Positions 3 through 12,618 are shown, counted from the stretch's first letter. The stretch is 61,837 nucleotides of DNA from Bacteroidota bacterium (GCA_021796275.1 JAJYOI010000005.1:1-61837); one strand, 5' to 3'. The notes: generated by a model not told the origin, from the sequence alone. Translations and numbers: made by a program.

Positions 3-3000
3 GTGCAAATTCAATCACCGAAAGGAATTGCACGCGGGCTTCAGCGCGTCGGACGTTCAGGACATCTCATCAGCGCGCAAAGCAAAGGACGAATTTATCC
101 GACGCATCGCGAAGATTTATTGGAATCAGCAGTCGTCGCAAAAGAAATGAACGCGCATGCCATCGAACATACGCATGTGCCGATGAATTGCCTCGATGTC
201 GTTGCACAGCAAATCGTTGCTATGGTAAGCGTGGAAGAATGGAATGTTGATGAATTATTCGATCTTCTCCGGCAGTCGTATTGTTATCATACGCTCACAC
301 GAAATTTACTGACAAACGTTATTCAGATGCTTGCGGGCAGATACACGAATGCAGCATTCCGGGAATTGCGTGCGCGCATTTCGTGGGACAAGGTGAGAAA
401 CACGTTATCGGCGCTCCCCAGCTCCTCTCGTCTGGCAATCACTAACAGTGGTACGATTTCCGACCGCGGCTATTTCGGCGTTTATCTCGACGATAAAAAA
501 ACGAAAATCGGCGAAGTGGATGAAGAATTTATTTACGAAAGCCGTGCGGGCGACACATTCATTCTCGGCTCCAATGTCTGGAAAATGCTCGACATTGATA
601 CCAATAAAGTCATCGTTGCGCCGGCGCCGGGCCAGCCGGCTCGAATGCCGTTCTGGCGCGGCGAAGGAATTGGCAGAACATTTGAATTAGGATTGAAGAT
701 CGGAGAGTTTCTTTCAAACGCAGAAAAATCGTTGAAGCAGCAGAGCGATTTTCTTCCACGGCTGAAAGAACACTATCCTGTTGATTCATCTTCGGCATGG
801 AATCTTCACGAGTATTTGCGGGCACAATTGGAATCCTCCGGTGCGATTCCTTCGCACACAAAACTTATCGTCGAAGGATTCCGCGATGAGATCGGCGACC
901 CGCGCATTGTAGTGCATTCCTGTTTTGGGCGCAGTGTTAACGGTTTGCTCGGCCTCGCATTGCTGCATCAACTGAAAAAGCGGATAAACATTTCCGCCGG
1001 GGGTGGATACACCTCTGGCGTAGAAGTACAAATGCTGTACAATGACGACGGCATTCTTCTCCGCTGCTCGGATGCTGAACGCCTCCCACTCGATCTTTTT
1101 TCGGAATTAACTTCGGACACGGCGCAGGAAATTGTACTCGAAGAATTAATGATGTCGCCGCTTTTCGGCGGCTTGTTCAGACAAAACGCAGAACGTGCAA
1201 TGCTTCTGCCGAAATTATTTCCCGGAAAACGAACTCCACTCTTTCTGCAGCGCCTTCGCGCGGGAGATTTATTACAAATTGCCCGGCAGTATGATGATTT
1301 CCCCATCGTGATTGAAACCGTGCGCGAAGCGTTGAACGATGCTCTCGACTTCGAACATTTCAAAGAGATCGTTCAAAAAATAGAAAAAGGAGAAATTCAG
1401 ATCCATGAGGTACAAACTGAAACACCGTCACCTTTTGCTGCCGGAGTGTTGTTTGATTTTGCCGCTGTGTACATGTACGAATGGGACAAGCCGAAAAGCG
1501 GCGCGCAAGAAACACAGCAAGCACTGAACAGGGAGCTTCTCTCCGACATCGTTGATTTCACGACAGTGAAACCGATCCTGAGAAGCGATGCCGTCAGCAA
1601 AGTTATTGATCAACTGCAATATATTGCACCGACACGTGCGGCAAGAACTCCGGAAGAACTTCTCGAAATGTTAATCCGCATCGGGGAATTGTCGCGCGAA
1701 GAAATTGCCGAACGTTCAGCAGGAAAAACGTTAACGCACGCAGTGCAGCTTCTTGCCCAACATTCTGCGTGTTCAATTACGGTAAGCGGGATTGAATACC
1801 TGATCGCATCAGAAGAGATTCCATATTACCGATCGCTCGCGCATATTTCAGCAGAGTCTTTTAAGAATCTTCCTGATGAAATCGCGGCAGCCGAAATTCC
1901 CCGTAACGACGCGCTGCAATTCATCATCCTTCGCATGCTTCGCTCGCATGGACCGCTGACAGCAGAATTTATCGCGCATCGTTATGGCATTGATGAAGAC
2001 GAATGCCGCAAAATTCTTTCCTTGCTATCGGACAAAGAGCCGCTTCAGCACGGAAAATTTTCCGGCGGCGCAGTTCACGACGAGTGGTGTTACCGTCCGA
2101 ATTTAGATCGCATTCATCGCGCTTCCATTTCTTTGCTGCGCAGAGAAATCAAGCCGGCAACAATGGCGGACTTTACGAATTTCCTTCTTCAATGGCAGCA
2201 TCGTAGTTCTTCAGCGCAGGAAATCGGCGGCTCTGCAGCGATCGAAATTATCGAGCAGCTTCAAGCACTTCCGCTTTCCGCTGAATTATGGGAACCGGAA
2301 ATTCTCCGACAGCGCATCAAACGTTACGACGCGGCAGAAATTCGCGCACTTACTTCTCGCGGTGAAGCGCACTGCGTCGGCACAAATTCCGGAAAAATTC
2401 AATGGGTTCTTCGCGGAGAAGGCGCAGCTTTTTTACCTGAAGGAAATGCCGAAACCGTGGAATCACTTTCATCTTCATCGCAAAACGTTCACACTTATTT
2501 GAAAGAAAACGGCGCATCGTTCTTGTCGGATTTGAGAGACGGAATGAACATTTCTCTTGCGGCTCTGAACAAAGCAATTGCCGAGTTATTCTGGAATGGA
2601 TTGATCACGAACGATGTCTTTGATGAAATCATGCATGTTAAACGGTTTAGAACAACCGAGGAAAATACTTTCCCTGATGAACGAATTGTTTTGACAAACC
2701 CGCGGCACAATCCGCTGAAATTCAAAGCGATGAAATCCGTCCGCGCAGCGCTGAAAACCATGCCGGGATGGAACGGACGCTGGTCGCTGACACATTCACG
2801 GAATGCCTTCGGATCGAAACTTTCGCCGGGAGAAAAAATATCGCGCCGTGCAGAGCAGTTGCTTCAGCGGTACGGCATTGTGGCGCGCGAAATTGTTAAG
2901 CGCGAAGAAAATCTTGGGCCATGGCCATTGCTCGCTATGGAATTCCAAAAGATGGAATTGCGCGGAGAAATACGCCGTGGCTATTTTATCGAAGGATTGT

Positions 3001-3449
3001 CGGGAATGCAGTTTGCGCTGCCGGCAGCGGTTGAAACTCTGCGCAATATTCGAAGCGCAGCTTCCGAGCAAACTCCTGTCGTACTCAACGCATGCGACCC
3101 GGCAAATCCGTACGGTTCGGGAATCGAACTCAACGGAGCATCGTCCAATGCTCTGCGCATGATGCGAGTTCCGTCAAATTATCTTGTGGTGCACAAAGGC
3201 ATGCCGATTGTGTGGATTGAAAATTATGGAGCGCGCGTGTCAACCATTGCCGAAACTGATATTCAATTATTGCGGCTTTGTTTGACACAGTTTGTCGAAT
3301 ATCTCCGCTCTGCGCGTTCACACGAACATGCCGCTATCACTATTGAGCATTGGAATGATCTCCGCCCGACGGAAAATCCTGCAGCAGAAATTCTTCGCTC
3401 TATCGGATTCTACCGCGACCGCGTGCAGACAATGAGGTTGGAATTATAG
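3..3449 (+). CDS. lhr: Lhr-family ATP-dependent helicase (long form with C-terminal winged-helix/AlkZ-like region), 5'-truncated by the window edge
   Basis: Helicase motif VI 'LQRVGRSGH', Lhr signatures 'LDVVAQQIVA', 'GEVDEEFIYESRAGDTFILG', 'MPFWRGE', 'ETPSPFA' and C-terminal 'LLQRYGIVARE...GEIRRGYFIEGLSGMQFA...ACDPANPYG'; frame is open to the window start. Confidence 0.9.
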   Translation: MQIQSPKGIARGLQRVGRSGHLISAQSKGRIYPTHREDLLESAVVAKEMNAHAIEHTHVPMNCLDVVAQQIVAMVSVEEWNVDELFDLLRQSYCYHTLTRNLLTNVIQMLAGRYTNAAFRELRARISWDKVRNTLSALPSSSRLAITNSGTISDRGYFGVYLDDKKTKIGEVDEEFIYESRAGDTFILGSNVWKMLDIDTNKVIVAPAPGQPARMPFWRGEGIGRTFELGLKIGEFLSNAEKSLKQQSDFLPRLKEHYPVDSSSAWNLHEYLRAQLESSGAIPSHTKLIVEGFRDEIGDPRIVVHSCFGRSVNGLLGLALLHQLKKRINISAGGGYTSGVEVQMLYNDDGILLRCSDAERLPLDLFSELTSDTAQEIVLEELMMSPLFGGLFRQNAERAMLLPKLFPGKRTPLFLQRLRAGDLLQIARQYDDFPIVIETVREALNDALDFEHFKEIVQKIEKGEIQIHEVQTETPSPFAAGVLFDFAAVYMYEWDKPKSGAQETQQALNRELLSDIVDFTTVKPILRSDAVSKVIDQLQYIAPTRAARTPEELLEMLIRIGELSREEIAERSAGKTLTHAVQLLAQHSACSITVSGIEYLIASEEIPYYRSLAHISAESFKNLPDEIAAAEIPRNDALQFIILRMLRSHGPLTAEFIAHRYGIDEDECRKILSLLSDKEPLQHGKFSGGAVHDEWCYRPNLDRIHRASISLLRREIKPATMADFTNFLLQWQHRSSSAQEIGGSAAIEIIEQLQALPLSAELWEPEILRQRIKRYDAAEIRALTSRGEAHCVGTNSGKIQWVLRGEGAAFLPEGNAETVESLSSSSQNVHTYLKENGASFLSDLRDGMNISLAALNKAIAELFWNGLITNDVFDEIMHVKRFRTTEENTFPDERIVLTNPRHNPLKFKAMKSVRAALKTMPGWNGRWSLTHSRNAFGSKLSPGEKISRRAEQLLQRYGIVAREIVKREENLGPWPLLAMEFQKMELRGEIRRGYFIEGLSGMQFALPAAVETLRNIRSAASEQTPVVLNACDPANPYGSGIELNGASSNALRMMRVPSNYLVVHKGMPIVWIENYGARVSTIAETDIQLLRLCLTQFVEYLRSARSHEHAAITIEHWNDLRPTENPAAEILRSIGFYRDRVQTMRLEL
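993..1022. repeat. 30-bp double-hairpin palindromic element, in frame in lhr (SAGGGYTSGV)
   Basis: tccgcc-ggg-ggtgga + tacacc-tct-ggcgta (two imperfect 6-3-6 palindromes); removing it gives the continuous sequence KKRINI-EVQMLYNDDG. Confidence 0.7.
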
Positions 3450-3450
3450 C

Positions 3451-3930
3451 ATGCTTCCCCATTATATCATTGACGGCTACAATCTTCTTCACGAAATTCT
3501 ACCGCTGAAAAAACTTCTCTCACATGATGCAGTCGCAGCAAGAGAGCAACTTATTGACATGATTGCACGGCTTACGATGAAAAGAAAACTCCGCTGCACG
3601 ATCGTATTCGACGGTGCTAAACCGCATGCTGGAAACTTTCCGGCAAGCAATACGCCGATTCATGTCGTGCATGCTTTCCCTGTTTCTGCCGACGAGAAAA
3701 TTCGGGAGATGATTGAAAAATCGAAAAGCCGCACATCGCTCGTCATTGTTTCTTCCGATCACGAAATTCTGAATTTTGCACGCGTTTGTTCATGCACAAC
3801 GCACACATCAAAATATTTTAAGCAGATGTTATTTGAAGAGCCGGATCACGGCGAAGAAAAGGAACAGGTGAGTCTTTCAAAAGCGCAGGTAAAGGAATGG
3901 CTGAAGATTTTTGGAGAAGAGAAACAGTAA
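3451..3930 (+). CDS. NYN domain (YacP/Rae1-like) PIN-fold ribonuclease
   Basis: 'IIDGYNL', 'IVFDG', 'SADEKI', 'IVSSD' acidic motifs; starts 1 nt after the lhr stop. Confidence 0.85.
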   Translation: MLPHYIIDGYNLLHEILPLKKLLSHDAVAAREQLIDMIARLTMKRKLRCTIVFDGAKPHAGNFPASNTPIHVVHAFPVSADEKIREMIEKSKSRTSLVIVSSDHEILNFARVCSCTTHTSKYFKQMLFEEPDHGEEKEQVSLSKAQVKEWLKIFGEEKQ

Positions 3931-3933
3931 AGG

Positions 3934-5097
3934 CTATGCGCTCGCAACTGTGGGCGATTCTTTTACGCGCGAAGATTCCATCATTGCAATAAACTTCGCA
4001 AAAAGATAATCGCTGTCGTGGGGACCGGGGGAAGCTTCGGGATGATATTGAACGCAGAACAGCGGAAGTGTTTTATGCTGAAAACCTTCAACTGTGTGAT
4101 CGTTAAGATTGATGTGCGTCAACTCCACTTTTTCGGCGTCCATCGTTTTCCACTCGACGGCAAAACCGTGATTCTGCGATGTAATTTCAATCTCATTCGT
4201 CTTCAAATTTTTCACCGGATGGTTGGCTCCGCGATGCCCGAATTTCAATTTGTACGTCTTCCCGCCAAGCGCTAACGCTAACAATTGATGACCAAGGCAA
4301 ATACCAAAAATCGGCTTCACGCCGACTAGTTTTTTTAGATTCTGAATTGCATATTTCACCGCATCCGGATCACCGGGACCATTCGAAAGAAAAATTCCAT
4401 CAGGATTCATTGCAAGAACTTGTTCGGCAGAATATGACGCCGGCACAACAGTAAGGTCACATCCATAGCTGACAAGCCGGCGTAAAATATTTCTCTTCAC
4501 ACCATAATCAAATACCACAACATTGAAACGCCGCCCATTTCGCTTCGCATCAACTTTTTGAGTCGCCAGCGCATACGTCGTACGATCAACATCATTCCAG
4601 CGGTACGGCTTCTCACACGTGACATGTTTTGCTAAATCCTGCCCCGTCATTCCTGGCGACGCCTGCGCTTTTGCAACGAGGCTTGTATCGTCTAAATCCG
4701 TTGTCGAAAGGACTCCGCGCAATGCGCCCTGTGTGCGAATCATTTTCGTCAACATGCGCGTATCAATGCCCTGAAGAGCGATGACATTATTGCGTTTCAA
4801 CCATGCGGCAAGACTTTCGTTCGCACGCCAATTGCTGAAGAAATCAAAATACTCGCGCACGAGAAATCCTGAAACCTGCGGCTTACCGGATTCAATATCT
4901 TCAAGATTAACACCGTAATTGCCAATCATCGGATACGTCATCGTGACAATCTGTCCGGCGTACGACGGGTCGGTGAGAATTTCCTGATAGCCGGTCATGC
5001 TCGTGTTGAACACAACTTCGCCGGCAATTTCTCCTTCGGCGCCGAAATTCTCTCCGGTAAAGACTATTCCATTCTCTAAAGCAAGCTTTGCGATCAT
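3934..5097 (-). CDS. carA: Carbamoyl-phosphate synthase small subunit
   Basis: 'GEVVFNTSMTGYQEILTDPSY', 'LSNGPGDP', 'GICLGHQL', 'QYHPEASPGPHD'. Confidence 0.98.
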   Translation of the reverse strand: MIAKLALENGIVFTGENFGAEGEIAGEVVFNTSMTGYQEILTDPSYAGQIVTMTYPMIGNYGVNLEDIESGKPQVSGFLVREYFDFFSNWRANESLAAWLKRNNVIALQGIDTRMLTKMIRTQGALRGVLSTTDLDDTSLVAKAQASPGMTGQDLAKHVTCEKPYRWNDVDRTTYALATQKVDAKRNGRRFNVVVFDYGVKRNILRRLVSYGCDLTVVPASYSAEQVLAMNPDGIFLSNGPGDPDAVKYAIQNLKKLVGVKPIFGICLGHQLLALALGGKTYKLKFGHRGANHPVKNLKTNEIEITSQNHGFAVEWKTMDAEKVELTHINLNDHTVEGFQHKTLPLFCVQYHPEASPGPHDSDYLFAKFIAMMESSRVKESPTVASA

Positions 5098-5132
5098 TTC
5101 TGTTTCATTTTCAAAATTATTTTTACGGAAGA

Positions 5133-5161
5133 AAAATACGAAAATGGCGATGGAGAGTCAA
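5133..5161 (-). promoter_or_regulatory. sigma70-type promoter of carA
   Basis: Minus strand TTGACT-17 bp-TATTTT; the -35 box lies 10 bp from the left end of the inserted element. Confidence 0.55.
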
Positions 5162-5171
5162 CGAACATTCC

Positions 5172-5210
5172 GGTGCTGGCTCAATTTACTCTTAAGTGGC
5201 TCAATTTCAA
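5172..5210 (+). repeat. Left terminal inverted repeat
   Basis: ggtgctggctcaatttactcttaagtggctcaatttcaa; contains TGGCTCAATTT twice, 20 bp apart; preceded by aacattcc (5164-5171). Confidence 0.8.
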
Positions 5211-5335
5211 TTTTTCTAAGTGAAAAAGAACGATAAAAAGTGAAAACGGGCACGGTTAATGAGGTTGCAATTGAAAATGGGAAATGTGATATTACTGCAC
5301 CCCATACTCGATAAACATTTGAAAGAGGTGCTCGC

Positions 5336-6886
5336 ATGTCGAAAGTTAATCTTGATGCTTTAGTACCACGAGAAGATTTTGATGCAATAGGAAATAATAG
5401 TCCGGGTGTTGTTGGAGATACAATTTCGATTTCCGATTTAACAAGTGGATATGTTTATCCATTTATTAGAAAACCCGATTTTCAACGAGAAACAAGCGAA
5501 TGGGATGCTAAGCAAATTTGTGATTTTTTAGAAAGTTTTCTTAATGGAGATTTAATTCCTGCCATCATATTATGGAGAAGTGCGTCTGGAAATTATTTTG
5601 TTATTGATGGTGCCCATAGACTTGGTGTCTTAGTTGCTTGGATTTTTAATGATTATGGGGATAAAGATATTTCTCAAAAATTTTATGACCATGATATTTC
5701 TTCAGATGAAATGTCTATTGCTGATAAAGCACGGAAAATGGTAAATCATCGAATTGGATCATTCCAAGATATTAAAAACTCCCCAAATGAAACAGCGCCT
5801 AATCCGGCATATTTGCAAAGAGCTAAAAATATGGGAGCCTATAAACTACGCGTTCAATGGGTAGAGGGTAATGCTGAAAAGGCAGAAAGTTCATTTTTTA
5901 AGATTAATCAGCAAGGCGTACCACTTAATAAAACAGAAATTAAACTTTTGGAATCCAGAAAAAAGGCTAATTGCATAGCGGCGAGAGCAATTTGGAAGGC
6001 AGGAAAGGGACATAAATTTTGGGTTGATTTTTCCGCAGAAAATCAAAGTGAAATTCAACGGCTTGCCAGCGAGATTAACAAAATATTATTTACTCCTCCA
6101 TTAAAATCGCCGGTTAAAAATCTACATTTACCAATCGCGGGAAGAATATCTGTGTCACTCCCTCTTATTTTTGATTTCATAAACATTGTTAATAATGTAC
6201 CATCCGATTTTAATAAAAAATTATTAGATGATGATAATGGAAATCAGACCATACAATATTTACGAGAAGTTAGAAAAATTGCATGGCGTATTAATAGCGT
6301 TCATCCTTCCTCGCTTGGATTAGATTCCATAGTTTATTTTTACAATACAAAGGGACAGCACAAGGCAACATCTTTTAGAGCAGTCATTGTTTGGGTTCTG
6401 GAGATGCAAAAAAATAATTCGTTCAAGGAGTTTACTAAAATTCGAGCGAATTTTGAAGAACTTCTCTTGAAGTATAATGATATGATTCAAGATATAGGAA
6501 GAAAGCTAAGACAATCAATTGATAGTTATTATGAAATAAAAGATTTCTATACAGAATGTATAAAATCTCTATCAAGAGGAAATAGTATTGATGCCGCGAT
6601 AAAAGAAGTAATTAGAACTACAAAGTTTAGTTATCTCAAAATGGAAATTCACTCAAGCGATTTCCACAACGAGGTCACAAGTGCAGTTATTAAAAGAGAA
6701 CGTAAATCTTCGGCTTTTATTAGAGAAGCATTAGAAACACGTATAAGATGTAAAATTTGTGGTGCAAGGTTACATGAAAATGCCATGCAGGTTGATCACA
6801 TTATCCGTGAAGAAGATGGGGGCTTGGGGAATGAAGAGAACGCTCAACTTACTCATCCGTTTTGCAATTCTACAATAAAAAATTAA
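5336..6886 (+). CDS. DUF262 (GmrS/ParB-Srx-like) plus C-terminal HNH endonuclease; GmrSD-like putative restriction nuclease
   Basis: DUF262 motifs 'PDFQRE..W', 'IPAIILW', 'VIDGAHRL', 'FFKINQQGVPL'; HNH 'CKICG...VDHII..EDGG.G..ENAQLTHPFCN'. Confidence 0.8.
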   Translation: MSKVNLDALVPREDFDAIGNNSPGVVGDTISISDLTSGYVYPFIRKPDFQRETSEWDAKQICDFLESFLNGDLIPAIILWRSASGNYFVIDGAHRLGVLVAWIFNDYGDKDISQKFYDHDISSDEMSIADKARKMVNHRIGSFQDIKNSPNETAPNPAYLQRAKNMGAYKLRVQWVEGNAEKAESSFFKINQQGVPLNKTEIKLLESRKKANCIAARAIWKAGKGHKFWVDFSAENQSEIQRLASEINKILFTPPLKSPVKNLHLPIAGRISVSLPLIFDFINIVNNVPSDFNKKLLDDDNGNQTIQYLREVRKIAWRINSVHPSSLGLDSIVYFYNTKGQHKATSFRAVIVWVLEMQKNNSFKEFTKIRANFEELLLKYNDMIQDIGRKLRQSIDSYYEIKDFYTECIKSLSRGNSIDAAIKEVIRTTKFSYLKMEIHSSDFHNEVTSAVIKRERKSSAFIREALETRIRCKICGARLHENAMQVDHIIREEDGGLGNEENAQLTHPFCNSTIKN

Positions 6887-7069
6887 AATTTTTCAAAGAG
6901 TCTCAAACATTTAGAAGCCGCGTTAGCATTACACTTTTTTCATTACAACTTTATGCGTATCCATGAAACAATTCGTGTTACCCCCGCAATGGAAGCGGGT
7001 ATTAGCAAACACCTTGTTTCATGGGAAGATTTCTTGGAATGGAGCGTTGAGAGCCGAATAGCGGCATAG
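6887..7069 (+). pseudogene. C-terminal fragment of an IS1-family transposase
   Basis: Translates NFSKSLKHLEAALALHFFHYNFMRIHETIRVTPAMEAGISKHLVSWEDFLEWSVESRIAA*, matching the 'FSK..ENH..A.ALHF..YNF.RIH.TLRVTPAM.AG' tail of IS1-family transposases; no start codon or DDE core. Confidence 0.8.
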
Positions 7070-7130
7070 TTTGTGCCAATATTCAATTTTTTAATTTGCT
7101 ATTCAAATATTATAGTACTAAATTTATAAT

Positions 7131-7754
7131 ATGTTAATGGAAATTAAAAAGGAAATTTCATTTCCACTGGATGTAGAAAAATCGCTTGCGATTGCCCAAA
7201 ACATCTTAAACAGATTAGAGGACAAAGAAGCGAATTTCATGTACTTATTGAAGTTGATATTTTTTGCAGATAGATACCACTTCAGAAAATATTTGCGCCC
7301 TTCGACAAGCGATAAATATTTTGCAATGAAAAGGGGCGCGGTAGCATCATATTTATATGACATTTTTAAGAATGGCACAAACGACGAAAGAATAAAAAAA
7401 ATTGGTGATTACACCGTTCAGCTCACCGGAGAACCGCAGTATCAAGAAAAATTATCGCAATCCGATATAGAGGCCATAGACTTTTCTTTCAATAATTTCG
7501 GGAAATATTCTGACATGGTTTTATCTGACATTTGTCATGCTTATCCCGAATGGAAGAAATTTGAAAAAGAATTAAATTCAAGAGATGGAAGAAAAAGCAT
7601 TCTAATGGATATGAGAGATTTTTTGGAAGATGCCGATCCAGAAGACAATATCTTTAGAAAAAATAAAATGTCCGATCCGTTTGAACCAATCCCAAAAGAA
7701 GAAAAAGAAATATTAGAAACACAATTGGTTGAAATTCACTCGCAAATCGCATGA
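7131..7754 (+). CDS. Panacea domain (DUF4065/SocA/GepA) antitoxin
   Basis: 'LLKLIFFADRYHFRKYLRPSTSDKYFAMKRGAVAS.LYD', 'LSQSDIEAID', 'LSDICHAYPEWKK' follow the DUF4065 pattern; start may be 7137. Confidence 0.8.
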   Translation: MLMEIKKEISFPLDVEKSLAIAQNILNRLEDKEANFMYLLKLIFFADRYHFRKYLRPSTSDKYFAMKRGAVASYLYDIFKNGTNDERIKKIGDYTVQLTGEPQYQEKLSQSDIEAIDFSFNNFGKYSDMVLSDICHAYPEWKKFEKELNSRDGRKSILMDMRDFLEDADPEDNIFRKNKMSDPFEPIPKEEKEILETQLVEIHSQIA

Positions 7755-8179
7755 GTCTTTCTGTTGGCGATGTTTTTTGGCTAAATAATCCCGAGGTTTC
7801 TTCTTCTAAATCCCATCTGCATATAGTCGTTGGCATTACCCAAGATAAAAGGGTTTATTATGTTTATGCTACTACGGGTAAGCGGTTCATGGAATTATTA
7901 TGCAAAAAAGCAGAGGGCAAGAAAGATACAACGAATCTATATACGCTTGTCGTCACCGATTCAACCGAATGCGCGGAACTAAGAGAAGAATCTTATATAA
8001 ACGTTAATCTATCATTTAGTAAGTCTGAATATGTTCTAACCAGACTTCGCACCTATTCACCGTGCGAGAATGTTAAAGCCGATCCAGCATTATTAAGAAA
8101 AATAGATGTTGCCCTTCTTTCCTCTCCCACCAAATCAATAGAGCTTGATACGATTGTAAGAGAGCGATTAAATCTTTAA
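7751..8179 (+). CDS. Hypothetical protein, weakly PemK/MazF-like; putative toxin partner of the Panacea protein
   Basis: ATGA overlap with the upstream gene; 'VGDVFWL...SHLHIVVG...YATT' and 'LREESYIN' echo the PemK beta-strand pattern. Confidence 0.55.
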   Translation: MSLSVGDVFWLNNPEVSSSKSHLHIVVGITQDKRVYYVYATTGKRFMELLCKKAEGKKDTTNLYTLVVTDSTECAELREESYINVNLSFSKSEYVLTRLRTYSPCENVKADPALLRKIDVALLSSPTKSIELDTIVRERLNL

Positions 8180-8198
8180 AAAACTACAAATCCTTAGT

Positions 8199-8237
8199 TT
8201 CAAACTGAGCCACTCGGCATCAAATTGAGCAAGCACC
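8199..8237 (-). repeat. Right terminal inverted repeat
   Basis: Reverse complement ggtgcttgctcaatttgatgccgagtggctcagtttgaa, 30/39 identical to the left IR; followed by aacatccc (8238-8245). Confidence 0.8.
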
Positions 8238-8280
8238 AACATCCCCGCAATGAAAAATCTTCACCATTTCTCTGCTTGAA

Positions 8281-10161
8281 TCAATGACGAACGAGAACAA
8301 TCCCCAAGTGTGTGCCGCGCGGGGTTTGCACGTGATAGAAATACAATCCATCAGGAAGAGGAAGCTGCGGAAAGTGCAACGCATGCCGCCCAGAAGAAAT
8401 TTCTGAAGAAAAGATCGTTGAAACGTTCTGCCCCAATTGATTGTAAAGTTTTAGCACAACAAGAGAAGGCTTCGCAAGTGTAACGCCGATATATGCCGGC
8501 GACAGCGCCGATAGCGCTGGTGTAACTGCCGCAAGATTTTGAAGCGGCGCGCGTTCTGGCTCCTTAGGATCGTAAAAACGAACCGCCGTAACATTCGACG
8601 GAAGGCTTTCATTCCATAATCTATCAAGTGATGTGGCAACGTACCACAATTCTGTACCGGGCGATGCAGGAAATTCGTCAACAAGCGAAGTCAAGGTGTC
8701 GGATGTTATGCAAAACAATTCCTTTGCATCGGAAGTTGTCAGATCACTTTGAGAAAACGAGCGATACATCGCAAAACGATATGCGCCGTCTCCGTCATTG
8801 GCATACAACGGAGATTCCCAATGAAGATCTACTTCTCCGCCAGTTTTTGTTGCTTTCAGGTTTTGCGGAGGCAGCGGCGGAACCGCATCTTTCCAACGCA
8901 TTGTCGGAAGCAACGCAGGATAGCTGTAGAAATTATATTTCAACGAATCTTGAAATCCATTCAAATTTCTTGTAATAGATTTCGAGCTGAAAAAAATACT
9001 TCCGCTCACATTTGAAGTTTCACGATTCAGTCTCATTTGGTTTGGCATTTGCGATGCCGACGACCAATGCGGATCTCCACGCCCGTTTCCGTTTCGATAC
9101 GCTGCCTGCCCGATATACAAATCACGTCCGAACGTGTGTTGCGCCCACCACGGTGTCAATAGATCATACGCCGCAGGCGGATTGCCGATGCTCCAGTAAA
9201 TCTGCGGCGTGACGTAATCAATCGTACCGGCACGCAGCCATTCCAATGCATCGCAGTACAATTTGTCGTATGCCTCAAAGCCATTTGTGCCGGCGCCGCC
9301 ATCCGCAATTTTATTTTTCCAAATGCCGAAGGGGCTGATGCCGAACTTCACCCACGGTTTTATAACGCTGATGCTGTCGTGAATCATGTTGACAAGAAGA
9401 TTCACATTGTCTCTTCGCCAATCGGCAAGCTTAGTAAAGCCGCGATTGTAATGAAGGAATGTCAGGCTGTCTTCGTTCGTGATCGGAGAATATGGATAAA
9501 AATAATCGTCAAAGTGGATTCCATCCACATCATACCGGCGAACGACATCAAGAATAACTTTCGTGACATACGCACGCACAGCGGGTAATCCCGGATCCAA
9601 CAGCTTCATCGAGCCAAACGTGAGAAGCCAGTCCGGATGCTGAACGGCAACATGGTTTGGCGCAAGCTGGTAGCTTCCTCTTCCCGATGAAGATTTCACG
9701 GCGCGATACGGATTGAACCACGCGTGCAATTCCATTCCGCGCTTGTGCGCTTCTTCAATGGCAAATTGCAAAGGATCCCACATGGGCGATGGCGCTTTTC
9801 CCTGTTCGCCGGTTAACCAATATGACCACGGCTCAATCGAAGAACGATACAATGCATCGCATTCGGGGCGGACTTGAAAAACGACAGCGTTAATGCCTGT
9901 AGATTTCAAATTGTCCAGAATGGAAATCAATTCTTGTTGTTGAACTGCCGGCGGTTCTCCTTTGTGCAACGGCCAATCTATATCATCAACAGTAGCGATC
10001 CACACGCCGCGGAATTCCCGCTTCGGCGGGAAAACTTCAGCATGAAGTGAACTTACAATGAACAATAAACACAACAACGTCCAATTGACGATTGCCGATT
10101 TACAATTTTCAATTTCCAATTTCTTATTACCTGTTGTCACTCGCCGTTGGCTATTGCTCAT
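8281..10161 (-). CDS. GHL10 (DUF187, YddW/DigH-like) glycoside hydrolase with FN3-like domain and degenerate T9SS-like C-terminus
   Basis: 'KREFRGVWIATV..IDWP', 'FQVRPECDALY.S.IEPWS', 'ELHAWFNPYR', 'DGIHFDDYFYPY', 'FGISPFGIW', 'PQIYW'. Confidence 0.9.
   Translation of the reverse strand: MSNSQRRVTTGNKKLEIENCKSAIVNWTLLCLLFIVSSLHAEVFPPKREFRGVWIATVDDIDWPLHKGEPPAVQQQELISILDNLKSTGINAVVFQVRPECDALYRSSIEPWSYWLTGEQGKAPSPMWDPLQFAIEEAHKRGMELHAWFNPYRAVKSSSGRGSYQLAPNHVAVQHPDWLLTFGSMKLLDPGLPAVRAYVTKVILDVVRRYDVDGIHFDDYFYPYSPITNEDSLTFLHYNRGFTKLADWRRDNVNLLVNMIHDSISVIKPWVKFGISPFGIWKNKIADGGAGTNGFEAYDKLYCDALEWLRAGTIDYVTPQIYWSIGNPPAAYDLLTPWWAQHTFGRDLYIGQAAYRNGNGRGDPHWSSASQMPNQMRLNRETSNVSGSIFFSSKSITRNLNGFQDSLKYNFYSYPALLPTMRWKDAVPPLPPQNLKATKTGGEVDLHWESPLYANDGDGAYRFAMYRSFSQSDLTTSDAKELFCITSDTLTSLVDEFPASPGTELWYVATSLDRLWNESLPSNVTAVRFYDPKEPERAPLQNLAAVTPALSALSPAYIGVTLAKPSLVVLKLYNQLGQNVSTIFSSEISSGRHALHFPQLPLPDGLYFYHVQTPRGTHLGIVLVRH
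10081..10122. repeat. Degenerate 7-bp tandem repeat (6 units) in the 5' coding region
   Basis: ccaattg acgattg ccgattt acaattt tcaattt ccaattt. Confidence 0.55.
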
Positions 10162-10170
10162 TGATAATTG

Positions 10171-12618
10171 TTATTTCTCCAACAACATTTTTTTCGCGTC
10201 AACAAACGAGCCGGATTGCAAGCGGTAAATGTATACGCCGCTCGGCAGCGCCGAAGCATTCCATTCAACCTCATACGTTCCGGAAACTCTTTGTCCATTC
10301 ACCAATGTTGCCACTTCCTGGCCGAGAACGTTATACACTTTCAATGTGACAAATCCGTAATCGGCAATCGTAAACCGTAAACGTGTCGCCGGGTTGAACG
10401 GATTCGGATAATTCTGATCAAGATGATACACCAATGGCTGCATTTCATTCCCTTGTTCAACTCCGGCTGTGCCCTGCCCGACACCGAAAAGCACAACTTT
10501 GAATGGCGAGTTCTGTGCAGTGCTGTATATTTTCAATGTATCCAGAAAAACTTTTGCTGTGTCTGGAGAAAATGCCACTGAAAAACTAAGCGTATCGCTT
10601 TTTGTCAGCGAAAGAGGAAATGTTATTGCCTGCGGCATCGAAAAAGCTTTGCTCTGGTGAACAATGGAATCCACCCGCAATGTGTTGACCGAAGAATTAC
10701 TCAGCGATACTGTTTTTGAAACCGACTGTCCGACATCAATTGTCCCGAAACCGATACCGGTTGCGCGTGCAGTCATCATTGGCGGCGGTGAATTTCCTTT
10801 CACAAAAACTTTCACCAAACTCAACGCTGAATTGTTTGGAAGGAACACAGTATCCGTGAATTGTCCGACAGCGGCGGGAGAAAAATAAACCAGAACTGCG
10901 GCACTGTCACTGACCGTTTCCGGTTTATTATCAGTTGAAGCGTGAAATGGCGCGCCTCCGGCATACGCTGAATCAAGTGTCAAAGTATTTGCTGAATGAT
11001 TGTACACAATCAACGAATCAACAGAAGCATTACCGATAGCAACATCGCCGAGATCAATCGAGAGTCTATTCATGGCAATAAACGGTTTGCCGCTTGGTGC
11101 GACATACGCCCGGCTTGCCGTGCTGCTTTCGTTCCATAATTTATCCAACGAAGTTACAATCGCTTCATATTGTGCGGAAGAAGCGGAAGCAAACGAATCC
11201 TGAAATTGTGTCGTGTCGGTCGCTGTGATTGTGCGAATGTTGCGCGGATCGGCCGCGTTAACTGCCAACAGAGAATTCACAGCGCTGTACACCACATATC
11301 GCCTCGCAGAATCTCCGTCTGCGGCAAGCGCCGGATTCTGCCACTGCAATAAAATTCCGTTTACATTTGCCGTGCCCGCAAGATTTGCCGGCGGCAACGG
11401 CGGAATGGAATCTTTCCACGTCATCGCAGGCATGAGCGTTGGGTATTTGTAGAAATTATTCTTCAACGAATCTGCAAAACCTTTCGGATTGTTGGTAACG
11501 CCGTACGCTGCCCTGAAGAAAATACTTCCCTCCGCAATGCCCGTACGATCCAACCGAATTTGATTCGGCAACTCTGACGATCCCCAATTACTATCCGTGA
11601 TGCGGTACGGTGCTTGCCCAACATACAAATGTCTGCCGTTTTTCACCGAAGCCCACCACGGCGCAAGTTTTCCATAATCTTGTCCGCCGCCAAAGGGCCA
11701 ATACAATTCGGGTCCAATGTAATCAACCCATCCTTGGGCAAGCCACGTCACAGCATCACAATACAAATCATCGTACGCACTCAGCCCGGAAACTCCTGCC
11801 GGAACTCCGCTCTTCCAAATACCAAATGGACTGATACCGAACTTCACCCACGGCTTCACGGCTTGAATGCTGTCATGAACTGCTTTGATAAGAACATTGA
11901 CATTATTTCTTCGCCAATCGCCGATATTTGTAAAGCTCCCGCGGTACAATCTCCAGCTTGCAGAATCCTGATTTGTTATGCCATTGTAGGAATAAAAATA
12001 ATCGTCCCAGTGCACACCATCAATATCGTAGCGCCGCACAACGTCAAGAATAACGCTTAAGTCGTACGCGCGCACATCGGGAATCCCGGGATCGAGCAGC
12101 CATTCGTTGCTGAATTTGAGAAGCCACTCAGGATGTTTCACTGCAACATGATTCGAAGCAAGAGTGTAACTCGGAACTCCGCTCTTTACCGTTTTCACTG
12201 CGCGGTACGGATTGAACCACGCATGCAATTCCATTCCACGCTTGTGCGCTTCGGTAATTGCAAATTGAAGCGGATCCCATAACGGGCTCGGCGCGCTGCC
12301 CTGCGCTCCGGTCAGCCAATACGACCACGGTTCGATTGATGACTGATACAGCGCATCGCATTCCGGCCGAATTTGAAAAACAACCGCGTTAATGCCGATA
12401 GCTTTCAGATTATCAAGAATGGTGATGAGCTGGCTTTGCTGGTACGATGGCGCCGCACCGCGCGCGGGCCAATCAAGGTTCGCAACGGTCGCAATCCATG
12501 CCCCGCGAAATTCACGCTTCGGAGGAACGCTTTGTGCGGATGATATTGCAAATGGCGCTGTAAGCGCCACAAAAACTACAACGAGTGTGAGAAGGAGAGG
12601 TCGTATCAAATTTTTCAT
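10171..12618 (-). CDS. GHL10 glycoside hydrolase paralog with FN3, two Ig-like (ASH/choice-of-anchor D-like) domains and a T9SS type A sorting domain
   Basis: Signal peptide; same catalytic motifs as the neighbour; C-terminal 'YHLDQNYPNPFNPATRLRFTI...LKVYNVLGQEVATLV...LPSGVYIYRL...KKMLLEK'. Confidence 0.9.
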   Translation of the reverse strand: MKNLIRPLLLTLVVVFVALTAPFAISSAQSVPPKREFRGAWIATVANLDWPARGAAPSYQQSQLITILDNLKAIGINAVVFQIRPECDALYQSSIEPWSYWLTGAQGSAPSPLWDPLQFAITEAHKRGMELHAWFNPYRAVKTVKSGVPSYTLASNHVAVKHPEWLLKFSNEWLLDPGIPDVRAYDLSVILDVVRRYDIDGVHWDDYFYSYNGITNQDSASWRLYRGSFTNIGDWRRNNVNVLIKAVHDSIQAVKPWVKFGISPFGIWKSGVPAGVSGLSAYDDLYCDAVTWLAQGWVDYIGPELYWPFGGGQDYGKLAPWWASVKNGRHLYVGQAPYRITDSNWGSSELPNQIRLDRTGIAEGSIFFRAAYGVTNNPKGFADSLKNNFYKYPTLMPAMTWKDSIPPLPPANLAGTANVNGILLQWQNPALAADGDSARRYVVYSAVNSLLAVNAADPRNIRTITATDTTQFQDSFASASSAQYEAIVTSLDKLWNESSTASRAYVAPSGKPFIAMNRLSIDLGDVAIGNASVDSLIVYNHSANTLTLDSAYAGGAPFHASTDNKPETVSDSAAVLVYFSPAAVGQFTDTVFLPNNSALSLVKVFVKGNSPPPMMTARATGIGFGTIDVGQSVSKTVSLSNSSVNTLRVDSIVHQSKAFSMPQAITFPLSLTKSDTLSFSVAFSPDTAKVFLDTLKIYSTAQNSPFKVVLFGVGQGTAGVEQGNEMQPLVYHLDQNYPNPFNPATRLRFTIADYGFVTLKVYNVLGQEVATLVNGQRVSGTYEVEWNASALPSGVYIYRLQSGSFVDAKKMLLEK

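Follow-up and report, generated by a model that had tools for sequence, protein, structure and literature searches.

Classical IS1 is about 0.8 kb long and expresses InsA and InsAB' by means of frameshifting; terminal repeats in the IS1 family of insertion sequences (IS) start with GGT (the ISfinder rule), and ISfinder lists members of up to about 4.6 kb. Known vehicles of defence and toxin-antitoxin genes are prophages, integrons, integrative elements and transposons of the Tn7 or Tn3 type. IS derivatives with passenger genes have been named transporter IS, or tIS (PMC9330008), and mobile insertion cassettes (MICs) are described as passenger genes that lie between IS ends, without a transposase. 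Lima-Mendez et al. 2020, as cited in PMC8832971, report toxin-antitoxin pairs within transposons of the Tn3 family. Our search of titles and abstracts, which covered few subscription journals and neither ISfinder nor TnPedia, found no description of IS1-family elements with restriction-like or toxin-antitoxin cargo. Here we analyse a 3.1-kb element at positions 5172-8237 of a 61,837-nucleotide stretch of DNA from a Bacteroidota bacterium (GCA_021796275.1 JAJYOI010000005.1:1-61837; the whole stretch is called the window). It lies between carA and a gene for a GHL10 glycosyl-hydrolase-like protein, holds genes for a DUF262-HNH nuclease, a Panacea antitoxin (PanA) and a putative toxin, and is very probably a non-autonomous, transposase-deleted derivative of an IS1-family element that carries passenger genes, which would make it a member of kinds already known.

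Ends, gene order and relatives of the element

The initial annotation had taken the segment for a transposase-less, IS1-like shuttle of defence genes, with 39-bp imperfect inverted repeats, 8-bp direct repeats, an AT-rich interior and only the last ~60 codons of an IS1-type transposase, and all of these features were borne out. Arms 5172-5210 and 8199-8237 form the longest inverted repeat within 5000-8500, with 30 of 39 positions complementary (77%). None of 60 dinucleotide-preserving shuffles reached 30; their best 39-nt inverted repeat averaged 24.4 with a maximum of 26. Abutting each repeat is one copy of the direct repeat, aacattcc at 5164-5171 and aacatccc at 8238-8245, identical at seven of eight positions; by arithmetic, two fixed 8-mers match this well or better with a probability of about 4e-4. 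The G+C content is 0.30-0.39 within the element vs 0.44-0.53 in its flanks. An Rfam scan of 4900-8500 gave no match at E<=0.1. The features of the element are as follows, genomes and loci used for comparison being cited by our G and L numbers.

5164..5171, no strand: left target-site duplication copy, aacattcc; homology to the empty site of genome G002 reaches 5167
5172..5210, + strand: left inverted repeat, two-part, with outer block GGTGCTGGCTCAATTT and inner block AGTGGCTCAATTTCAA; longest repeat of the region
5211..5335, + strand: leader from left repeat to nuclease gene, presumed promoter region; 5171-5563 aligns with the intact G246 element at 68% identity
5336..6886, + strand: DUF262 (ParB-like NTPase) + HNH nuclease, 516 aa, GmrSD-like, predicted from Pfam and invariant motifs
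6887..7069, + strand: IS1-family transposase remnant, last 60 codons + stop, recognised by C-terminal homology to intact transposases
7102..7130, + strand: promoter-like TTCAAA-17-TATAAT directly 5' of the antitoxin gene, a consensus match only
7131..7754, + strand: PanA (SocA/Panacea, DUF4065) antitoxin, 207 aa, predicted from Pfam PF13274
7751..8179, + strand: putative toxin PanT, 142 aa, with a predicted MazF/PemK-like fold (AlphaFold2 model, Foldseek, hhalign)
8199..8237, - strand: right inverted repeat, read inward, with outer block GGTGCTTGCTCAATTT and inner block AGTGGCTCAGTTTGAA; longest repeat of the region
8238..8245, no strand: right target-site duplication copy, aacatccc; abuts the right repeat

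The link to the IS1 family comes from the transposase remnant and from the sister elements to which it led. Translation of 6887-7069 gives 60 codons ending ...HYNFMRIHETIRVTPAMEAGI... followed by a stop, and these 60 residues, which by themselves have no Pfam match, align with the last 60 of intact IS1-family transposases (best 83% identical). Searched against the translated DNA of 277 genomes of the order, the remnant had matches at E<=1e-5 in 69, the window's own genome included. The best matches (77-83% identity) were the C-termini of open frames of 283-350 aa, and the window's repeats recur around those genes. The intact sister transposases are encoded by a single open reading frame (ORF) of 279-315 aa and score 29-32 bits with Pfam DDE_Tnp_IS1 (PF03400; cut-off 24.1); with NCBIfam transpos_IS1 they reach 69 bits, under the cut-off of 100, and 'IS1 family transposase' is the annotation of their plasmid homologs, whose identity is at most 43%. 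Sisters with the window's repeats thus combine DDE_Tnp_IS1 transposases, GGT ends and 8-bp duplications, in agreement with the family assignment of the initial annotation. In nine complete elements, the window's and the eight listed below, the 8-bp duplication is perfect in seven and matches at seven of eight positions in the window and in G246.

G246 (L172), 3965-8076, 4112 bp: aaatagac / gaatagac, 7/8
G075 (L173), 216-3621, 3406 bp: gggaattt, perfect
G062 (L174), 4751-7589, 2839 bp: tacacagg, perfect
G051, split over two contigs (L189, L175), size not given: atacaggc, perfect
G073 (L243), 503-4735, 4233 bp: aaatttct, perfect
G073 (L244), 1757-5766, 4010 bp: caacattc, perfect
G073 (L245), 450-4936, 4487 bp: gcgaaacg, perfect
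G108 (L188), ~3.1 kb, repeats of another subtype: atctatcc, perfect

When 15 repeats, taken from 12 elements, were aligned, the outer GGT and the inner GTGGCTCA..TT proved invariant, with a consensus of GGTACTGGCTCAATTT, about eight variable nucleotides, and then AGTGGCTCAGTTTGAA. Both conserved blocks are intact in both repeats of the window, a single base differing in the outer block of the right repeat. The three G073 elements share only 70-76% DNA identity. Scanning metagenomes with the two-part pattern yielded 26 loci, 11 of which have IS-type ends (10 starting with GGT, and L210 with GGA), and sister loci with two-part repeats were L195, L205, L206/L207, L210 and L213. The other 15 loci were rejected as tandem-repeat or other contexts, as was the single locus from the viral-contig scan, which has tandem motif repeats in place of an IS end. 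A 16-nt repeat pattern proved too short for the genome collection, where it gave at least 119 loci, none of the 119 examined matching beyond 14 of the next 28 repeat bases. Putative transposition activity in the lineage has indirect support only, in the form of several separate insertions that have duplications, plus a single empty site.

Three side observations concern the repeats. Each repeat holds two copies of GGCTCA(A/G)TTT (window 5172-5210 and 8199-8237; L174 4751-4809 and 7531-7589; L189 ~1005-1055), spaced start to start by 19-20 nt in most elements, by 31 nt at the left end of G051, and by 40 nt at both ends of G062. These spacings are close to whole helical turns, as if two transposase-binding sites had to share one face of the DNA. 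The motif GTGGCTCA(A/G)TTT also occurs in short tandem direct repeats without an IS1 end (L194, L196, L197/L200, L199/L209, L203 and L211 from metagenomes, L216 from a viral contig), which may be iteron-like sites for a related DNA-binding protein. In G073, a gene-less, 239-bp, MITE-like piece with inverted repeats (L243 4744-4982) directly follows the 8-bp duplication of the 4.2-kb element, and in a second element of that genome another left-type repeat directly follows the duplication (L245 from 4945); these abutting ends suggest tandem insertions or a preference for sites beside an existing end.

Comparison with the intact sisters also indicates how the window copy arose. In three elements (G246, G051 and the metagenomic L205) the order is left repeat, DUF262-HNH gene, HTH_17 gene (66-77 aa), and transposase gene; in G246 the transposase of 315 aa is followed by ORFs of 180 and 135 aa, and in G051 the transposase of 281 aa is followed by the right repeat. 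The layout of the intact relatives is left repeat, DUF262-HNH, small HTH_17, single-ORF IS1 transposase, variable small module, right repeat. Relative to it, the window copy is without the HTH gene and transposase residues 1 to ~251-255, ~1.05 kb of DNA as measured on G051; transposase homology begins at G246 residue 252, which corresponds to window 6875. Its two-part repeats and its three passenger genes are all intact. That the DUF262-HNH gene is a recurrent passenger upstream of the transposase, and that the window copy derives from an internal deletion of ~1.05 kb, go beyond what the initial annotation had proposed. At the junction the window reads ...AAAAATTAAAATTTTTCAAAGAG..., and G051 has ATATTTTTCATTT directly after the HNH stop, with GCTTTCTCAAAG at the corresponding point of its transposase gene. 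From this comparison, the deletion may have used the short microhomology TTT(T/C)TCA.

Loss of the transposase is not confined to the window copy. In G108, which has a different repeat subtype and a remnant only 55% identical, DUF262-HNH is followed directly by a decayed remnant from about residue 244 and then by two ORFs; L206/L207 is a whole element of 2361 bp with only transposase residues 245-315; and further truncated copies retain residues 268-315 (L210), 179-315 (L213) and ~174-305 (G145). We observed that all six truncated copies keep the C-terminus of the transposase, their remnants starting at about 252, 244, 245, 268, 179 and 174 (window 6887-7069; L188 4786-4959; L206 1179-1391; L210 1717-1860; L213 435-842; L177 5231-5614). 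Selection for sequence beside the right-hand cargo could account for this, or ascertainment bias could, since it was mostly a C-terminal query or the right repeat that led to the copies.

Cargo of the two slots and the PanA-toxin pair

We defined the left slot as the interval from the left repeat to the transposase gene and the right slot as that from the transposase stop to the right repeat. The left slot holds DUF262-HNH in five elements (G246, G051, L205, the window and G108); in G062 and G075, a protein of 128-145 aa that weakly matches HARE-HTH (46% identity between the two); XRE-HTH + M78 peptidase in G073/L245; HTH_66/DUF433 in L206; and orphans in several others. The right slot of the window holds PanA and the 142-aa ORF. 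Elsewhere this slot contains ORFs of 180 and 135 aa on the opposite strand (G246), 170 and 189 aa (G075, with the same pair, 56-62% identical, in L195), 147 and 180 aa (G062), or 167 and 150 aa (G108); DUF6941, a protein weakly resembling UPF0150, and a HicA-like protein at 24.2 bits, under its cut-off of 27 (L213); an NYN protein with a full-length match to PADLOC HEC-09 at E 1.9e-45 (L206); or an NYN protein (G073/L244). It is empty in G051, L205 and G129, where the transposase gene ends ~40-115 bp from the repeat. Most cargo proteins had no match in Pfam, NCBIfam or PADLOC, and the 135/180-aa pair of G246 showed no BLASTP similarity to the 150/167-aa pair of G108. The 135-aa protein of G246 falls among HEPN clusters of the ESM Atlas (feature score 0.97; structural TM 0.78 to a cluster with PF05168 in 58% of its members), a lead that it may be HEPN-like. 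Because sister elements carry other cargo in the same slots, the word 'shuttle' in the initial annotation is justified. As a side observation, the G075 element lies 118 bp from a gene of 943 aa resembling N6-adenine methylase and Eco57I (L173 3739-6570, G075:C33), likely a fused restriction-modification enzyme, and may therefore stand in a defence neighbourhood.

We propose that elements of this IS1 lineage would act as small carriers that swap conflict-gene modules at two fixed slots flanking the transposase gene. For the order as a whole we give an even chance to the generalisation that the lineage is a two-slot carrier, with DUF262-HNH often on the left, probably transcribed from the promoter of the IS, and modules exchanged on the right, whose copies repeatedly lose the transposase and become fixed cassettes, and whose orphan pairs are new systems. 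If this is true, the orphan pairs (G075/L195, 170+189 aa; G062, 147+180 aa; G108, 167+150 aa) would be new toxin-antitoxin or defence systems findable by position alone, and the cargo slots of the lineage would provide cheap bait for new small conflict systems.

In the window the right-hand module is best described as a predicted toxin-antitoxin operon. PanA scored 75.9 bits with PF13274 (cut-off 25.7) and 22.5 bits with NCBIfam SocA_antitoxin (cut-off 190), and we therefore do not regard it as a SocA equivalog. The start of the toxin gene overlaps the antitoxin stop by 4 nt (ATGA). The toxin family is rare: a word-based search of 5.8 billion proteins returned three, including the window's own, and an exhaustive HMMER search of 1.84 billion returned 15 representatives at E<=0.001. 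Among 401 genomes of the phylum sample it occurs in three (the window's, G635 and G424), in each directly downstream of, and overlapping, a PanA gene. An AlphaFold2 model of the toxin, built from a 14-sequence alignment, had a mean pLDDT of 93.0 and a pTM of 0.87. Foldseek against the Protein Data Bank (PDB) gave 35 matches at E<=0.001, the best being MazF chains (E ~1e-4; TM 0.56 by query and 0.67-0.71 by target), and the matches listed were MazF-type entries (B. subtilis, S. aureus, M. tuberculosis, E. coli) except for one CptIN type III toxin (4rmo). The structural neighbours of the toxin in the ESM Atlas include PemK clusters, and hhalign against 13 bona fide PemK domains of relatives aligned 99 columns with an E of 1.5e-4. 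A search of PDB sequences with the toxin gave no useful match, and those of the toxin-family profile were only designed helical repeats and were discarded as spurious. By the model and these comparisons the 142-aa protein is predicted to adopt a MazF/CcdB-type fold, and we infer that it forms a type II toxin-antitoxin pair with PanA. Kurata et al. 2022 (PMC8832971) validated pairs of PanA with PemK/MazF-like toxins, among them two PanT toxins whose MazF similarity is detected by HHpred only, and showed direct binding of PanA antitoxins to their toxins; in the window, PanA would neutralise the predicted RNase toxin by binding. A PanA-like protein at L215 was not counted as a second case of PanAT cargo, its Pfam score being sub-cut-off and its similarity to the window PanA not significant.

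The pair might stabilise the element, cause abortive infection, or do both. That it is purely an addiction module, of the kind proposed for the pairs in Tn3-family transposons, serving the element by penalising its loss and giving no protection against phage, has somewhat less than an even chance in our judgement. Toxin-antitoxin-like modules (HicA-like, HEPN-like, NYN beside DUF433) recur beside the right repeat in sisters, and the pair is still intact in a copy that has no transposase; Kurata et al. 2022 (PMC8832971) consider a part in addiction and remark that transposases are often found close to PanAT loci, with Lima-Mendez 2020 cited for Tn3. Addiction is nevertheless a weak explanation for a single chromosomal copy incapable of excision, and such a role would be compatible with defence. 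The contribution of this putative toxin-antitoxin module may be of either kind.

Insertion site, mobility and the nuclease

The genes that flank the element are host genes and lie outside it.

3934..5097, - strand: carA; promoter-like site at 5161..5133
8281..10161, - strand: GHL10 glycosyl-hydrolase-like protein

Upstream of carA, on the minus strand at 5161..5133, is a promoter-like TTGACT-17-TATTTT. The initial annotation had placed the element 10 bp from the carA -35 box; the spacing of 10 nt to the left repeat holds, and the promoter itself is a consensus match only, with 13 promoter-like sites across the region vs 12.0 expected from shuffles. It had also suggested an empty site in related genomes, and we compared window 3900-10200 with 30 relatives. 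In G002, of the same genus, the matches to carA and GHL10 lie 11 nt apart on one contig with no insert between them; left-flank homology ends at window 5167, four bases into the left direct repeat, and right-flank homology is back by 8278. The left boundary is thus fixed to a few bases, the right one only to ~40 nt. Taken together with the repeats, the alignments clearly indicate that the carA-GHL10 spacer received an ancestral element, whose insertion duplicated 8 bp.

One DNA sequencing run (X1), the only one found to contain the stretch and possibly of the source sample, yielded one contig of 3295 nt at depth 12 that covers 5068-8362 exactly. The flanks 4900-5097 and 8333-8500 were also found in contigs of ~56-fold depth, with 7 and 11 differences, ending at 5097 and 8333; the sample probably contains, in addition, a more abundant relative whose spacer content differs. 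No contig of this run joins across the element, so that the run speaks neither for nor against polymorphism of the insert. No RNA run was found to contain the stretch, and nothing from the two RNA runs of that study aligned to it.

Mobility of the window copy has to be considered separately from its origin. In principle, the element would be movable by a cognate transposase acting in trans. It could still be mobile in this organism if such an IS1 transposase were encoded on an unassembled repeat or on a plasmid, and the intact blocks of its repeats, the state of the assembly (3.30 Mb in 150 contigs, 91% complete, so that repeats may be unassembled), and the existence of transposase-less relatives with perfect duplications, such as G108, are all consistent with this. 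Within that assembly, however, only the remnant matched the G246 transposase, PF03400 gave no match, and no second copy of the repeats was found; moreover, the window's duplication already carries one substitution. We therefore consider continued mobility unlikely: as no IS1 transposase was found in a 91%-complete assembly, the element is probably immobile there, and it is most likely fixed in this organism. So read, the window copy documents a path from mobile cassette to fixed chromosomal gene set.

The passenger nuclease scored 66.7 bits with GmrSD_N (DUF262, PF03235; cut-off 33.2) and 28.9 bits with HNH (PF01844), which its C-terminus matches. According to PMC4619093, PMC4437046 and PMC8565348, GmrSD and BrxU join an N-terminal DUF262 domain and a C-terminal His-Me-finger nuclease in one chain. 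Because DUF1524 was not found, we describe the window protein as GmrSD-like and do not file it as GmrSD. The motifs KP.FQR.T..W, F.IDG.HR, C472/C475, D487-H488, N502 and H507..C510-N511 are invariant across 14 homologs, and the protein therefore looks functional. It would most likely be an NTP-dependent, GmrSD-like nuclease acting as a type IV (modification-dependent) restriction enzyme. A role of the nuclease and of the toxin-antitoxin pair in phage defence, as supposed in the initial annotation, is only inferred, and all gene functions here are predictions.

We also asked whether the nuclease belongs to the cargo or to the transposition machinery. As an accessory transposition factor, for example one making or processing DNA breaks, it would be co-transcribed with the transposase from the left-end promoter, and its position is suggestive: it is the first gene inside the left repeat, followed in the same orientation by the HTH and transposase genes, in G246 (39% identical to the window's over its full length), G051 (71-78% identical) and L205, and it keeps that position in two transposase-deleted elements, the window's and G108. 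The different repeat subtype and divergent remnant of G108 further imply that the link between nuclease and IS1 is old or arose more than once, and in four of the six genomes of the order (out of 277) that hold a homolog at E<=1e-10 the nuclease stands beside an IS1 transposase or remnant. Set against this, the homologs of G176 (73% identical) and G023 (47%) have neither transposase nor repeats nearby, and many elements of the lineage have no DUF262-HNH gene (G062, G075, three G073 elements and, in the parts retrieved, L195/L213). Of 401 genomes sampled evenly from the phylum, eight held a homolog, and in none of the seven besides the window's genome was there an IS1 transposase in the fetched 1.5-kb flanks. 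The nuclease belongs to a very large family (of 7999 candidates scored, 3477 cluster representatives reach E<=1e-20) of stand-alone genes of ~515 aa, typically 513-517 aa, found in many phyla, for which the source names are DUF262, GmrSD-domain or HNH protein. Plasmid homologs, 36-38% identical, adjoin systems other than IS1: an Enterobacter copy adjoins a Tn3 transposase, and a 36%-identical homolog on the Burkholderia glumae plasmid NZ_CP023207.1 (L242 3089-6590) adjoins a CBASS-type operon with genes for a DncV-like cyclase and ThiF-family and MPN-family proteins. We regard an accessory role in transposition as improbable and read the nuclease as a captured stand-alone gene rather than as machinery. 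As a separate observation, the G051 nuclease gene (L189 2-912, G051:C32) has in-frame stops in its first 320 codons (2 TAA and 1 TAA in the two matched pieces), and this passenger seems to be decaying while the transposase frame stays open.

Several results weigh against the reading of the segment as a transposase-deleted IS1 derivative with conflict-gene cargo. The duplication of the window copy is imperfect (7/8), its genome yielded neither a second repeat copy nor an IS1 transposase, and the right edge of the empty site is inexact, 11 nt in G002 vs 40 nt in the window from the right duplication to the GHL10 stop. In G001, the other same-genus genome, the spacer holds a gene for a TonB-dependent-receptor-like protein of 740 aa (L028 2667-4889, G001:C41), from which we conclude that the carA-GHL10 spacer is variable within the genus. 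As to the cargo, Pfam detects no DUF1524 (GmrD) domain in the nuclease, which has a canonical HNH instead; the nuclease has neither an NCBIfam match nor a PDB sequence match; and PADLOC recognises no defence system here, giving only a weak domain-level match to NsnA (Menshen) at E 6.6e-9. For the toxin, the hhalign probability against PemK is only 51%, there is no Pfam (PF02452 included) or PADLOC match, and PemK_toxin touches one of 14 family members, at E 0.006. The extreme alternative, that the repeats resemble each other by chance and that some other route brought in the AT-rich segment, for example by homologous replacement in a spacer that is empty in G002 and holds a receptor gene in G001, is scarcely credible given that shuffles never reach the observed repeat, that elsewhere intact IS1 elements flanked by 8-bp duplications end in these two-part repeats, and that a transposase remnant lies inside the segment. 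With Pfam matches for the nuclease and PanA and a predicted fold for the putative toxin, the gene content proposed in the initial annotation stands, and a transposase-deleted IS1-family derivative is very much our preferred reading.

Comparison with known systems

For the conflict genes described here the vehicle, an IS1-type insertion sequence, is close to the minimum possible in size, and from copy to copy its slots differ in the modules they contain; the main interest of the locus lies in exchangeable conflict modules on a minimal transposon, and in a rare PanT family with a predicted MazF fold. The lineage is like the IS1 family in that its DDE transposase matches DDE_Tnp_IS1, its ends have the outer GGT, and its duplications are of 8 bp. 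Unlike classical IS1, its elements measure 2.4-4.5 kb, have passengers on both sides of the transposase gene and two-part repeats, and encode the transposase in a single ORF (279-315 aa).

The intact sisters match the description of a tIS, and the window copy that of a MIC, with IS-type repeats and a duplication, passenger genes, and no functional transposase. Unlike a MIC, however, the window copy retains a 60-codon transposase remnant, so that its derivation from a tIS is directly readable, and its cargo consists of conflict genes, whereas the MIC papers found deal mostly with quinolone resistance. Like the Tn3-family transposons with built-in pairs, as discussed in PMC8832971, it has a toxin-antitoxin pair beside a transposition module within a transposable element; the transposase family and the scale are different.

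The window nuclease resembles GmrSD and BrxU, as portrayed in those reports, in the fusion of DUF262 to a His-Me-finger nuclease in a single chain of ~500-600 aa. It differs from GmrSD in that its C-terminus is a PF01844 HNH and not DUF1524, and in that its DUF262 motif is DG(A/S)HR, that of GmrSD reading DGQQR. The PanA-toxin pair is like known PanAT systems in having a PanA-domain antitoxin in a two-gene operon with a small partner of predicted MazF fold; unlike MazF, the toxin family has His-Pro-His in the hhalign alignment where MazF has the conserved Arg-Pro.

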